From: a virus
Taxonomy: Duplodnaviria; Heunggongvirae; Uroviricota; Caudoviricetes
Strand: one strand, 5' to 3'
Length of the DNA: 5,418 nt
Virus record (IMG/VR): IMGVR_UViG_2541047960_000010
Shown here: piece by piece, positions 1,796 through 5,418 of the stretch
How positions within the stretch are numbered: the first letter of the stretch is position 1
Layout of the letters: the number at the start of each line of letters is the position of its first letter
Translations under genes and position numbers: made by a program
The notes under the pieces: generated by a model
Told to the model about the DNA's origin: nothing
Databases searched by the model: none
The model's input: only the letters and a program-made list of their open reading frames with translations

Positions 1796-2014
1796 TTACA
1801 ATCCCCATTGTTTGTTCTTAAGTTCGATCTCCTCCTGGCAACTTGCACAAGTCCGACAACCCTGAACGGCCAGGCGTCTTCGCTCATCTATGGGATCGCC
1901 ACACTCACAACAATGAGTGGCAGATATAGCCTGGTGGTTCAGGCGGCGCATTTTTATTGCTGTGTTGCGCTGTAATTCTTCAATTTCTGATGCTGAATCA
2001 ATGATGTCTGCCAT
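1796..2014 (-). CDS. DksA/TraR-family C4 zinc-finger protein (phage TraR-like regulator of host RNA polymerase)
   Basis: 72-aa ORF with a Cx2C-x(17)-Cx2C motif (CCECGDP...GCRTCASC) near the C-terminus, preceded by a helical N-terminal region. Size and motif arrangement match F-plasmid TraR and the lambda orf73 type. Confidence 0.8.
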   Translation of the reverse strand: MADIIDSASEIEELQRNTAIKMRRLNHQAISATHCCECGDPIDERRRLAVQGCRTCASCQEEIELKNKQWGL

Positions 2015-2073
2015 CTTCCATTAATCCCTGAATTGTTGGTTAATACGCTTGAGGGTGAATGCGAATAATAGAA

Positions 2074-2092
2074 AAGGAGCCTGTAGCTCCCT
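2074..2092 (-). terminator. Candidate intrinsic terminator or attenuator hairpin on the leftward transcript
   Basis: Minus-strand RNA reads AG-GGAGC-UACAG-GCUCC-UU followed by a U-rich tail (UUCUAUUAUU): a 5-bp GC-rich stem extendable to 7 bp with one G-U and one A-U pair, 5-nt loop. It sits 21 nt downstream of the 71-aa ORF stop and before the TraR-like gene. The stem is short, so this is weak. Confidence 0.25.
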
Positions 2093-2112
2093 GATGATTT
2101 TGCTTTTCATGT

Positions 2113-2328
2113 TCACCGTTCCTTAAAAACGCCGTTTAACATGCCGATCGCTAGGCTTAAATGAGTCGGTGTGAATCCCATCAGCGTTACCGTTTCGCGG
2201 TGCTTCTTCAGTACGCTACGGCAAATGTCATCGACGTTTTTATCCGGAAACTGCTGTCTGGCTTTTTTGATTTCACAATTAGCCTGACGGGCAATGCTGC
2301 GAAGGGCGTTATTATGTTCTATTGTCAT
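2113..2328 (-). CDS. Hypothetical small protein (71 aa), immediately downstream of the TGT-fold gene
   Basis: The six-frame track gives a 117-aa ORF (2113..2466), but its first 46 codons overlap the end of the 250-aa gene in another frame. The internal ATG at 2328 sits 7 nt after that gene's stop with GAGG spaced 5 nt (TGAGGCCAAT-ATG), so the 71-aa product MTIEHNNALRSIARQ... is the better model. Confidence 0.5.
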   Translation of the reverse strand: MTIEHNNALRSIARQANCEIKKARQQFPDKNVDDICRSVLKKHRETVTLMGFTPTHLSLAIGMLNGVFKER

Positions 2329-2335
2329 ATTGGCC

Positions 2336-3088
2336 TCACACTTCGAATGCCAGCTGAGGGGTAAAGACGTCCCGTTCAGCGTTGTAATTAAGTGAACTGG
2401 CACTGTTGAATGATTCAATGCGTTCCACAAGAACTTGCGTACGGGTTTCTTTACTTGCGGGAGCATATGGCGAACCTACCCAGGATTTGTCGATGCCTAT
2501 ATTTCTTGCGACGTTCGTGCTGTCTGCAGACGAAAGCGGTACATGAGTAAAAATGTCTTTATTTAACATCCGTAACCCATGAATCTTGGTGATTGGGTAG
2601 CCGTACTGATCTACAACATGACGTATAAGATCGCGTAGTTTAGCCCGACACGCTCTCGGTCGTTTTGCATCGTATTCCCCCATCGAGCCGATGCAGACGC
2701 GGGGAAACTCATGGCACAGACGAATAAATCGCTCATCTGGTTCGTTCATGTGCCACACCGGAGCACCAATAAATTTACCGTGAGGCCATGCCGCAATCAG
2801 GGCGTCATTCTCTTCACTGGTTCCGCCGATAACATCCGGGATAACCGCGAATGAGAAACGAGGGTGATTACCCCAGCGTTCAACAAATCTGTAATATTCA
2901 TTCCAGTCTACGGCCTTGTTTTTTGTCCAGAATGTGAATGCACCATTATCAAGAGCAAATGATTGGGTGACTTCGGAAGCCAGATCAATCTGAGCTGGAT
3001 TAGCAAAACTGATGAATGCGTGTCTGCCTTTCCAGGCTTTCAACGCACAGGTATCGGGAGTTATTGGACCACCGTGAAAATGAATCAT
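2336..3088 (-). CDS. TGT-fold (tRNA-guanine transglycosylase superfamily) protein lacking the zinc subdomain; putative DpdA-like DNA 7-deazaguanine transglycosylase
   Basis: 250-aa ORF, RBS GGGAGAG before the ATG at 3088. Motifs line up in order with the TGT TIM-barrel active-site elements of Zymomonas TGT: FALDNGAF vs LTDSGGYQ (Asp102 region), AVIPDV vs MAFDE (Asp156 region), CIGSMGEY vs AVGGLAVGE, and SSADSTNVARNIG vs MFDCVLPTRSGRNG (nucleophile Asp280 region). No CxCxxC...H zinc motif. The CDS call is solid; the functional assignment is by motif only. Confidence 0.6.
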   Translation of the reverse strand: MIHFHGGPITPDTCALKAWKGRHAFISFANPAQIDLASEVTQSFALDNGAFTFWTKNKAVDWNEYYRFVERWGNHPRFSFAVIPDVIGGTSEENDALIAAWPHGKFIGAPVWHMNEPDERFIRLCHEFPRVCIGSMGEYDAKRPRACRAKLRDLIRHVVDQYGYPITKIHGLRMLNKDIFTHVPLSSADSTNVARNIGIDKSWVGSPYAPASKETRTQVLVERIESFNSASSLNYNAERDVFTPQLAFEV

Positions 3089-3243
3089 ACACTCTCCCGT
3101 TTATTATTTATCTCCTCAGCCAGTCGCTGGGCTTTCAGCGGATTTCGGATAACAGAAGGCCCGGGAAATACCCAGCCTCGCTTTGTAACGGAGTAGACGA
3201 AAGTGATCGCACCTACCCGGATATTATCGTGAGGATGCTTCAT
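3085..3243 (-). CDS. Small ORF (52 aa) translationally coupled between exo and the TGT-fold gene; in the position of lambda orf60a
   Basis: Not in the supplied ORF track (too short). Its ATG (3243..3241) overlaps the exo stop as ATGA, and its TGA (3087..3085) overlaps the next gene's ATG as ATGA. Translation: [52 protein letters not shown]. An in-frame ATG two codons upstream (3249) is an alternative start. Confidence 0.5.
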
Positions 3244-3920
3244 CGCCATTGCTCCCCAAATACAAAACCAATTTCAGCCAGTGCCTCGTCCATTTTTTCG
3301 ATGAACTCCGGCACCATCTCGTCAAAACTCGCCATGTACTTTTCATCCCGCTCAACCACGACATAATGCAGTCCTTCACGCTTCATACGCGGGTCATAGT
3401 TGGCAAAGTACCAGGCATCTTTTCGCGTCACCCACATGCTGTACTGCACCTGGGCCATGTAAGCTGACTTTATGGCCTCGAAACCACCGAGCCGGAACTT
3501 CATGAAATCCCGGGAGGTAAACGGGCATTTCAGTTCAAGGCCGTTGCCGTCACTGCATAAACCATCTGGAGAGCAGGCGGTACGCATACTTTCGTCGCGA
3601 TAGATGATCGGGGATTCAGTAACATTCACGCCGGAAGTGAACTCAAACAGGGCTCTGGCGTCGTTCTCGTACTGTTTTCCCCAGGCCAGCGCTTTAGCGT
3701 TAACTTCCGGAGCCACACCGGTGCAAACCTCAGCAAGCAGGGTGTGGAAGTAGGACATTTTCATGTCAGGCCACTTTTTTCCGGAGCGGGGTTTTGCTAT
3801 TACGTTATGAACTTCTGAAGCTGTGATGACGCCGAGCCGTAATTTGTACCACGCATCATCCCCCTGTTCGACAGCTCTCACGTCGATCCCGGTACGCTGC
3901 AGGATAATGTCCGGTGTCAT
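3240..3920 (-). CDS. exo: Lambda exonuclease (Red-alpha), 5'-3' dsDNA exonuclease
   Basis: 226-aa ORF whose translation ([24 protein letters not shown]...[11 protein letters not shown]) matches phage lambda Exo in length and nearly residue for residue, as recalled. Start ATG overlaps the bet stop (ATGA). Confidence 0.95.
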
Positions 3921-4702
3921 GCTGCCACCTTCTGCTCTGCGGCTTTCTGTTTCAGGAATCCAAGAGCTTTTACTGCTTCGGCCTGTGTCAGTTCTGACGA
4001 TGCGCGAATGTCGCGGCGAAATATCTGGGAACAGAGCGGCAATAAGTCGTCATCCCATGTTTTGTCCAGGGCAATCAGCAGAGTGTTAATCTCCTGCATG
4101 GTTTCATCGTTAACCGGAGTGATGTCGCGTTCCGGCTGGCGTTCTGCAGTGTATGCGGTATTTTCGACAATGCGCTCGGCTTCATCCTTGTCATAGATAC
4201 CAGCAAATCCGAAGGCCAGGCGGGCACACTGAATCATGGCTTTATGCCGTAACATCCGTTTGGGATGCGACTGCCACGGGCCGGTGATTTCTCTGCCTTC
4301 GCGGGTTTTGCATGGTTCGCGGCGGCATTCATCCATCCACTCGGTAACGCAGATCGGATGATTGCGGTCTTTGCGGTAAATCCGGCATGTACATGATTCA
4401 TTGTCCTGCTCAAAGTCCATACCATCAAACTGCTGGTTTTCATTGATGATGCGGGACCAGCCATCAACGCCCACCACCGGAACAATGCCGTTCTGCTTAT
4501 CAGGGAAGGCGTAAATTTCTTTCGTCCACGGATTAAGGCCGTACTGGTTGGCGACGATCAACAATGCGATGAACTGCGCATCGCTGGCATCACCTTTAAA
4601 TGCCGTCTGGCGAAGAGTGGTGATCAGTTCCTGTGGGTCGACAGAATCCATGCCGACACGTTCAGCCAGCTTCCCTGCCAGCGTTGCGAGTGCTGTACTC
4701 AT
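3917..4702 (-). CDS. bet: Lambda Beta (Red-beta) single-strand annealing protein
   Basis: 261-aa ORF ([59 protein letters not shown]...) matches lambda Bet in length and sequence as recalled. Sits between gam and exo as in lambda. Confidence 0.95.
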
Positions 4703-4707
4703 CCGTT

Positions 4708-5004
4708 TTATACCTCTGAATCAATATCAGCCTGATGGTGAGCAATGGTTTCAACTATGTACCGGATGTGTTCTGCCATGCGCTCCTGAAACTCAACATC
4801 GTCATCAAACGCACGGGTAATGGCTTTTTTGCTGGCCCCGTGGCGTTGTAAATGATCGATGCATAGCGATTCAAACAGGTGCTGGGGCAGGCCTTTTTCC
4901 ATGTCGTCTGCCAGTTCTGCCTCTTTCTCTTCACGGGCGATCTGCTGGTAGTGACGCGCCCAGCTCTGAGCCTCAAGACGATCCTGAATGTAATAAGCGT
5001 TCAT
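4708..5004 (-). CDS. gam: Gam, host RecBCD nuclease inhibitor (short 98-aa form)
   Basis: 98-aa [24 protein letters not shown]... matches the C-terminal 98 residues of lambda Gam. RBS AGGAG 7 nt upstream of the ATG. The region upstream still encodes ...IFRSSAM in frame (lambda has ...YFRSSAM) but is closed by an in-frame TAA at 5061..5059, so only the short form can be made. Confidence 0.9.
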
Positions 5005-5079
5005 GGCTGAACTCCTGAAAATGGCTGTGAAAATATCGCCCGCGAAATGCCAGGCTGATTAGGAAAACAGGAAAGGGGG

Positions 5080-5223
5080 TTAGTGAATGCTTTTGCTTGA
5101 TCTCAGTTTCAGTATTAATATCCATTTTTTATAAGCGTCGACGGCCTCACGAAACATCTTTTCATCGCCAATAAAAGTGGCGATAGTGAATTTAGTCTGG
5201 ATAGCCATAATTGTTTGATCCAT
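5080..5223 (-). CDS. kil: Kil, host cell-division (FtsZ) inhibitor, 47 aa
   Basis: The supplied 87-aa ORF starts with a TTG and its first 40 codons are the cIII region read in another frame. From the internal ATG at 5223 the product [47 protein letters not shown] matches lambda Kil (47 aa) as recalled. AGGAG lies upstream. Confidence 0.85.
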
Positions 5224-5343
5224 TTTTGGGGACTCCTGGCTGATTGAGTATGTCGATAAGGCGTTTCCATCCGTCACGTAATTTACGGGTGATTCGTTCA
5301 AGTAAAGATTCGGAAGGGCAGCCAGCAACAGGCCACCCTGCAA
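5192..5343 (-). pseudogene. cIII: cIII remnant: 5'-truncated by IS insertion, start codon and RBS lost
   Basis: Minus-strand frame overlapping the kil start translates to [50 protein letters not shown]-stop, which matches lambda CIII from residue 5 to the end (lambda begins MQYAIAGW...). Upstream of the Ile codon the sequence becomes the IS terminus, and no ATG, GTG or TTG exists in frame before the upstream stop at 5371..5369. The junction position is uncertain by about 1 nt. Confidence 0.7.
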
Positions 5344-5418
5344 TGAACCGCCCCGGGAATCCTGGAGACTAAACTTCCTGAGAAAGAGGTAAACAGGATG
5401 ACTAAAAATACTCGTTTT
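5344..5418 (+). mobile_element. Left end of an IS3-family insertion sequence (IS629 / IS1203 / IS3411-like), continuing beyond the window
   Basis: Sequence from 5344 (TGAACCGCCCCGGGAATCCTGGAGACTAAACTTCCTGAGAAAGAGGTAAACAGG-ATG...) matches my recollection of the IS629-group terminal inverted repeat (IS3-family 5'-TG terminus) followed by the orfA RBS and start. It begins exactly where homology to lambda cIII stops. Confidence 0.75.
5398..5418 (+). CDS. IS3-family transposase OrfA, N-terminal 7 codons only (truncated by window end)
   Basis: ATG at 5398 preceded by AAGAGG at about 8 nt. Encodes MTKNTRF, the characteristic N-terminus of IS629-group OrfA (MTKNTRFSPEV...). Confidence 0.7.

Follow-up and report, generated by a model that had tools for sequence, protein, structure and literature searches.

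DNA transglycosylases of the DpdA family have been described both in phages and in the dpd island of bacteria. In phage CAjan, deletion of the DpdA gene led to the loss of the modified deoxynucleoside dPreQ0 from phage DNA, and CAjan DpdA modifies ~32% of guanines (PMC6884629). In the bacterial DpdA of Salmonella (bDpdA), Asp95 serves as general acid/base and Asp256 as nucleophile in a double-displacement base exchange (PMC10164549). Hutinet et al. (2019) set apart, as a "third group", 76 phages with DpdA but without preQ0 or G+ genes; their hosts encode the full queuosine pathway, and the phages "could rely on preQ0 synthesized by the host" (PMC6884629). Here we describe a candidate for this group in the virus record IMGVR_UViG_2541047960_000010 of IMG/VR, analyzed as one stretch of 5,418 nucleotides (hereafter, the window). 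A gene at positions 2336-3088 on the minus strand encodes a protein of 250 amino acids (aa). We consider it probable that this gene is a stand-alone ("singleton") phage DpdA, that is, a DNA-acting paralogue of tRNA-guanine transglycosylase (TGT) with a compact TIM barrel and no zinc site.

The protein itself is already known. It was 100% identical to the product of positions 23519-24271 of phage SfI (YP_009147480), which RefSeq (NC_027339) names "queuine tRNA-ribosyltransferase". The same SfI accession stands in the DpdA-only list of the Supplementary Data of Hutinet et al. 2019, together with HK106, SPN3UB, BTP1, SEN1, SE131, and 7-11. The same protein and the same host-precursor hypothesis have therefore been in print since 2019, and no later work on singleton or temperate-phage DpdAs was found in the literature searched. 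The original prediction, made from the sequence of the window, had called a temperate phage carrying only the transglycosylase an unusually stripped-down system; this view has to be given up, as DpdA-only phages, including the SfI protein, were already a published group of 76. Its observation that queC, queD, queE, and folE are absent from the window was correct, and none of these genes was found in the whole 38-kb genome of SfI either. The precursor pathway of Hutinet groups 1 and 2 (folE, queD, queE, and queC, in some cases joined by gat-queC, arcS, or queF) is thus lacking in both the window and complete SfI, and therefore the gene belongs to the DpdA-only group.

The open reading frame (ORF) starts with ATG at 3088 and ends with TGA at 2336-2338. 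A ribosome-binding site, GGGAGAG, is located 5-6 nt 5' of the ATG. The start codon overlaps the stop codon of the upstream DUF1317 gene (ATGA), and only 8 nt separate the stop codon from the ATG of the following gene, which belongs to PHROG 303. Homologs of the protein formed 6182 clusters at 90% identity; at 50% identity there were 894 representatives, almost all ~250 aa long. These thousands of full-length family proteins come from phages of Enterobacterales, Vibrio, Aeromonas, and Acinetobacter. Comparison with the orthologue of Klebsiella phage KO-TP1 gave a ratio of nonsynonymous to synonymous differences per site (pN/pS) of 0.118 (pN 0.10, pS 0.88), which we report instead of a distance-corrected dN/dS because synonymous sites were saturated. 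The ORF is a real conserved gene and not a chance ORF, and it is under purifying selection.

Membership in the TGT/DpdA superfamily, as originally proposed, was borne out by a phage protein family, by profile alignment with CAjan DpdA, and by a barrel model. The window protein matched PHROG 887 ("queuine tRNA-ribosyltransferase") at E 4e-99, as did CAjan DpdA at E 8e-96 and 7-11 DpdA at E 7e-74. When a profile of 73 family sequences was aligned with CAjan DpdA alone by hhalign, the probability was 97.2% (E 2.9e-11), and alignment with the CAjan family profile gave 97.8% (E 9e-13). In tblastn, 7-11 DpdA and the window protein shared 36% identity (E 1e-27). Homology to an experimentally validated DpdA was thus found by PHROG 887, hhalign, and tblastn alike. 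The AlphaFold2 model calculated from the alignment (pLDDT 94.4, pTM 0.90) is an eight-stranded alpha/beta barrel, the TGT-like (beta/alpha)8 fold of phage DpdA, with every invariant residue at the C-terminal end of a strand. A Foldseek search of predicted viral structures (BFVD) returned 30 matches at E <= 1e-3. The named ones were nearly all phage "queuine tRNA-ribosyltransferases", and the matches included protein R9TGF0 of Vibrio phage nt-1.

The four active-site motifs that had been read from the window, LDNGAF, IPDV, GSMGEY, and ADSTNVARN, were all located in this order in the translated ORF (Table 1). In the alignment of the 73 sequences, which extends down to ~30% identity, ten residues were invariant: D47, G49, A50, P84, D85, N94, H113, H170, P184, and D189. 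They include three aspartates (D47, D85, and D189), and a phenylalanine follows the first aspartate by four residues, as in the active site of phage DpdA. Alignment of the family with CAjan DpdA by hhalign paired LDNGAF with LDSGAFS, VWH with CFH, KIHG with KLHA, and SADSTN with SCDSSS, so that both histidines are aligned.

By analogy with characterized enzymes, roles can be predicted for most of these residues. D47 would be the general acid/base and F51 the phenylalanine that stacks on the base, in a D-x3-F arrangement comparable to Asp95/Phe99 of bDpdA. From its order and spacing, D85 is predicted to read the Watson-Crick edge of guanine or 7-deazaguanine as Asp130 does in bDpdA, with an uncertain register relative to CAjan, whose aspartate (VLDG) was placed three columns off by hhalign. 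H113 may contact the base like His181 of bDpdA. The glycine-rich loop GSMGEY is a putative counterpart of GGLAVGE in Escherichia coli Tgt, judged by inspection of the Tgt sequence. H170 is a possible hydrogen-bond partner of the nucleophile, comparable to the H226/D248 pair of Cap10 (preprint 10.1101/2025.04.06.647259), and D189 is the predicted catalytic nucleophile (cf. Asp256 of bDpdA and Asp280 of Z. mobilis TGT). Taken together, D47-x3-F51...D85...H113...D189 appears to mirror Asp95-Phe99...Asp130...His181...Asp256 of Salmonella DpdA, an equivalence drawn from order, spacing, and hhalign rather than from superposition.

Table 1. Coordinates of the dpdA-like gene, its predicted active-site segments, and the other features of the window
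Feature	Position	Strand	Remarks
dpdA-like gene	2336..3088	-	250-aa stand-alone (singleton) phage DpdA (probable), compact TGT-superfamily alpha/beta barrel
LDNGAF, residues 46-51	2936..2953	-	D47, G49, A50 invariant; F51 conserved in at least 90%
IPDV, residues 83-86	2831..2842	-	P84, D85 invariant; D85 directly after model strand 78-82
H113	2750..2752	-	invariant; end of model strand 111-113; aligns with His of CAjan CFHFGED
GSMGEY, residues 134-139, Gly-rich loop	2672..2689	-	G134, G137 conserved in at least 90%; loop after strand 130-134 (strand 6)
H170, strand 7	2579..2581	-	invariant; in strand 168-172; aligns with His of CAjan KLHAFG
ADSTNVARN, residues 188-196	2501..2527	-	D189 invariant; S187, S190 conserved in at least 90%; in strand 187-190
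Optional gene cassette, 769 bp	2317..3085	.	blastn of window against phage 1H12: only 1-2316 and 3086-5345 match
lambda-type int	1-1143	-
xis	1133-1369	-
DUF4222 gene	1509-1748	-
DksA/TraR-like zinc-finger gene	1796-2014	-
PHROG 303 small gene, downstream of dpdA	2113..2328	-	true start ATG 2328
DUF1317 gene	3085..3249	-	PF07026, E 1.5e-32; stop overlaps dpdA start
exo	3240-3920	-	Pfam YqaJ, PHROG
bet	3917-4702	-	Pfam RecT, PHROG
gam	4708-5004	-	Pfam Gam, PHROG
Left end of IS3-family insertion sequence	5346..5418	+	5344-5418 matches CE10 locus 25864-25938, transposase coding sequence start

We then compared the window protein with the known systems. The other singleton phage DpdAs (the third group of Hutinet et al.) are of similar length (~235-250 aa), come from phages without que or folE genes, and carry the same published host-preQ0 hypothesis; besides the identity with SfI and the 36% with 7-11, the window protein was 68% identical to those of BTP1 and SPN3UB. 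No difference was seen at the level of the protein, and what distinguishes the window gene is its location in a prophage beside icd that is disrupted by an insertion sequence (IS), not in a viable phage. A record of 1719 bp under the name "Staphylococcus phage SA 1298 Kay" (OR850331.1) also contained a dpdA of the Salmonella type, with 67.6% identity to the window protein as in BTP1 and SPN3UB; this record is probably a mislabelled or contaminant sequence.

The validated dPreQ0 DNA transglycosylases of the phage DpdA1 type, CAjan gp35 and 9g DpdA, have the same D...D...H...H...D pattern, and PHROG 887 is common to CAjan and the window. The hhalign match to CAjan DpdA, with 97-98% probability, covers residues 41-196, and CxCxxC is found in neither protein. 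CAjan DpdA, however, is only ~19% identical, is longer (306 aa, with ~55 extra N-terminal and ~90 extra C-terminal residues), and is encoded beside folE, queD, queE, queC, and a preQ0 transporter. The DpdA of the bacterial dpd island (S. Montevideo, PDB 7UI4) has its catalytic Asp/Asp/His/Asp in the same order, but this 413-aa protein depends on the ATPase DpdB and contains both a structural zinc site (CXCX2CX22H) and a large insertion named Ins8 (PMC10164549). The window protein, at 250 aa, consists of the barrel only and has neither Ins8 nor the zinc site; no gene for the ParB-like ATPase DpdB and no dpdC-K neighbor was found in the window, and PADLOC gave no DpdA match.

The original prediction that the C-terminal zinc subdomain is absent was confirmed. 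The protein has four cysteines (14, 125, 132, and 147) and no CxCxxC...H motif, hence no zinc site of the TGT/bDpdA type, and its model ends in short helices after strand 8. That such a minimal form is special did not hold up, as CAjan DpdA, also with four cysteines, likewise lacks CxCxxC, which makes this a general trait of phage DpdAs. The absence of the zinc site sets phage DpdAs apart from bacterial DpdA and TGT, not the window gene from other phage DpdAs.

Two more distant relatives were also considered. Cap10 of type IV CBASS (PDB 9NTN) is, like the window protein, a zinc-less compact TGT barrel with an Asp/His catalytic pair, but the likeness is at the level of fold only, with 10% identity. 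Cap10 works with the QueC-like Cap9 and with a CD-NTase whose N-terminus carries the deazaguanine, and no operon with CD-NTase and Cap9 was found in the window or in SfI. In E. coli Tgt (PF01702), the motif counterparts DSGGF, FDEC, GGLAVGE, and FDCVMPTRNARN are visible. Tgt differs, however, in having 375 aa against 250, and the window protein lacks its zinc site, its tRNA-binding insertion, and its PF01702 match; the zinc-binding C-terminal subdomain that contacts tRNA in Tgt was not found.

These comparisons lead to a model of how a singleton DpdA may work. In an intact phage such as SfI, dpdA would be a delayed-early gene, transcribed after gam-bet-exo in the N-antiterminated leftward pL operon. 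Its product would flip guanine out of duplex DNA, and a free 7-deazaguanine base from the queuosine pathway of the host (preQ0, possibly preQ1 or an amido derivative) would resolve the intermediate. The outcome would be a low density of probably sequence-specific dPreQ0 or dADG marks on replicated phage DNA before packaging, and the likely benefit would be escape from some restriction systems in the next host. The homology, the fold, the conserved catalytic residues, the purifying selection, and the lack of precursor genes are shown by the analysis, whereas the activity of the singleton clade on DNA, the nature of the inserted base, and the anti-restriction benefit are inferred.

Published expression experiments are consistent with the use of host precursors. 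9g DpdA alone in E. coli gave 790 dPreQ0 per 10^6 nt in plasmid DNA (PMC6884629). DpdA2 of phage nt-1 alone in E. coli gave 926-1607 dPreQ0 per 10^6 nt, and the modification was lost in a queD deletion. Precursor pools of the host are thus sufficient for these phage DpdAs in E. coli. The nearest tested relative is phage 7-11, a phage with DpdA only, whose DNA carries dADG at 50 per 10^6 nt, or ~0.02% of guanines (PMC6884629). Because 7-11 carries so little dADG, marks in the singleton clade are expected to be sparse and probably specific to a motif, and guanine would not be replaced in bulk.

The genomic context fits a role of DNA modification in anti-restriction. In KO-TP1 (PQ571297, positions 2352-5504), a dpdA with 86% identity has the DUF1317 gene upstream with a 4-nt overlap; after it come genes for a PD-(D/E)XK protein and for two DNA methyltransferases, suggesting that this neighborhood is a DNA-modification (anti-restriction) cluster. 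SfI also carries dam and ral. In BTP1 (LT714109, positions 4267-5232), eaA lies directly downstream of the dpdA homolog and encodes a dATP/dGTP pyrophosphohydrolase domain (PF04447, E 4e-48); that a dGTP-directed enzyme adjoins a guanine-exchanging one may be mere chance within the ea region or may reflect a functional link.

Several results weigh against the identification as a DNA-modifying DpdA. Searches of Pfam, NCBIfam, PADLOC, and PDB sequences with hidden Markov models (HMMs) gave no TGT or bDpdA match for either query, the protein's own sequence or the profile of its family. PF01702 matched neither the window protein nor any of the 73 family members, whereas E. coli Tgt scored 560 bits. 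The original prediction had named this Pfam search as a check that could refute it, but the check turned out to be uninformative: the HMM nulls are not evidence against the TGT idea because the validated CAjan DpdA also has no Pfam TGT match and PHROG 887 is common to both. In addition, the family profile gave no hhalign match to E. coli Tgt alone, Foldseek against the PDB found generic TIM barrels only, and the best structural match was Cap10, which handles a protein-linked base and not DNA. On the experimental side, modification in 7-11 is not only at the trace level given above but is dADG rather than dPreQ0, and Mycobacterium phage Orion, which encodes a singleton, has no modification (PMC6884629). 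The gamma-proteobacterial singletons form a cluster of their own in the sequence similarity network and may have diverged functionally (Hutinet et al. 2019); within that cluster, activity upon expression is a prediction for every member. For the window itself, no sigma-70-like promoter was found upstream of dpdA on the minus strand, and the IS element severs the Red/dpdA operon from its promoter-proximal side (the cIII start, N, and pL).

Some of these results would also suit a singleton clade that has diverged, keeping the base-exchange chemistry of TGT but with another acceptor or in another direction, a possibility that we regard as unlikely. In one version, the enzyme would strip competing DNA of 7-deazaguanines or guanines, as a DNA glycosylase or by exchange, in exclusion or counter-defense; in another, it would be a Cap10-like enzyme handling a protein-linked 7-deazaguanine. 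H170 and D189, both invariant, form a pair similar to the catalytic H226/D248 of Cap10, which is also the top structural match. The separate network cluster, with the divergence flagged by Hutinet et al., points the same way, as does the trace modification in 7-11, the sole tested member, which is insufficient for bulk protection. However, both the window and SfI lack genes for a CD-NTase and for a Cap9/QueC-like protein. The residue after strand 5 is a histidine (H113), as His181 of bDpdA, and not a lysine as K154 of Cap10, a correspondence drawn from the order of residues alone. The profile match is to a DpdA validated as modifying DNA, the neighbors in KO-TP1 are DNA methyltransferases, and a lytic early operon suits an enzyme that modifies the DNA of its own phage better than a defense expressed in the lysogen.

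In a related form, to which we give a similarly low probability, the enterobacterial singleton DpdA clade would be a functionally distinct enzyme and not a weak bulk modifier. It could use host precursors to set only a few site-specific 7-deazaguanine marks in each genome, as a targeted decoy or an epigenetic signal against a particular defense system. Alternatively, its TGT chemistry could be reversed or redirected, for example to the excision of deazaguanine from the DNA of rival phages or to a Cap10-like protein-linked base. Such a distinct enzyme would explain the separate cluster, the compactness, the trace of dADG in 7-11, and Cap10 as the best structural match.

A further reading is that the gene is an inactive relic, a decaying or non-catalytic passenger with no present function. 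The window had been read as part of a temperate lambdoid prophage, but this prophage is probably not an active temperate phage. The ATG of the IS3-family transposase lies near 5398, and the IS element, whose junction is at 5345/5346, directly adjoins cIII and cuts it short. The closest complete genome, E. coli CE10 (NC_017646, 1264457-1310394), has 518 bp that are missing from the window, comprising the start of cIII and a DUF2528 gene. The CE10 prophage, integrated beside icd, has decayed to a mosaic remnant that has no immunity, replication, or lysis module. The region after its IS element contains incomplete iss, terminase, and lom genes, along with an invertase-like recombinase and a tail module of the Mu/P2 type with pseudogenes. 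As one contiguous stretch, the window was found in none of the best 8 complete E. coli genome matches listed.

The truncation by the IS element, the partial genes of the CE10 remnant, and the lack of a promoter-like site upstream on the minus strand would all agree with a relic. The gene is also dispensable: phage 1H12 is otherwise nearly identical (97-98% in the flanks) but has 277 unrelated bp in place of the 769-bp cassette. At least 80% of window positions 2000-3300 was matched in 95 of 5426 complete E. coli genomes, while the flanks were matched in 3614. Nevertheless, the ORF is intact and its product is the same as that of viable phage SfI, all catalytic-type residues are invariant in 73 diverse relatives, the pN/pS is low at the value given above, the family counts thousands of full-length proteins, and disuse at one locus does not make a family inactive. 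Viable carriers are known in SfI, BTP1, SPN3UB, and similar phages. We therefore judge an inactive relic to be improbable for the family, although such a description may fit the use of the gene in the IS-cut prophage, where it is probably a well-preserved passenger that is not in active use.

Finally, it is very improbable that the protein is a TGT altering queuosine or preQ in tRNA of the host or phage: the name "queuine tRNA-ribosyltransferase" in PHROG 887 and NC_027339, the shared superfamily and catalytic aspartates, and the tRNA-Asn and tRNA-Thr genes of SfI (tRNA-Asn being a queuosine substrate) speak for it, but PF01702 is unmatched, the zinc site and the entire insertion with which TGTs hold the anticodon stem-loop are missing, the name has been transferred to all phage DpdAs including the DNA-acting one of CAjan, and the host already has Tgt.

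All phage genes of the window are on the minus strand and are arranged as in the early-left (pL) operon of lambdoid phages (Table 1). The overlap between the DUF1317 gene and dpdA suggests translational coupling, and the same junction was found in SfI and KO-TP1. A conserved partner gene of dpdA was looked for, and no obligatory one was evident. The place upstream of dpdA is taken by the DUF1317 gene in SfI, KO-TP1, and the window, but by an Ead/Ea22-like gene in BTP1, and Vibrio phage D453 has a small ORF without a Pfam match there.

Downstream of dpdA, an ORF of 117 aa at 2113-2466, which would share 131 nt with the 3' end of dpdA, was rejected as an over-call, as its PHROG 303 match begins at residue 45 and the RefSeq coding sequence of CE10 is 2113-2328. 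The GenBank record of SfI has the same over-long call (SfI_0033). Directly downstream of the PHROG 303 gene, a terminator-like hairpin (AGGGAGCTACAGGCTCCTT, then a T-run) is located at 2074-2092 on the minus strand; it may be a tL-type terminator that is read through under N antitermination. For gam, the start differs among records, with 98 aa in the window and in RefSeq CE10 and 138 aa in the SfI record (1965-2381), the usual ambiguity between long and short Gam.

If the singleton DpdAs are active, the host queuosine pathway would be all that many temperate phages of E. coli, Shigella, Salmonella, and Klebsiella need in order to place 7-deazaguanine in DNA. Restriction, other defense systems, and nanopore or restriction-based analyses of carrier strains would then be affected, and the gene would provide a one-gene tool for DNA deazaguanylation. 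Such phages would also be exposed to the newly described deazaguanine-sensing defenses (glycosylases and GrwAB).

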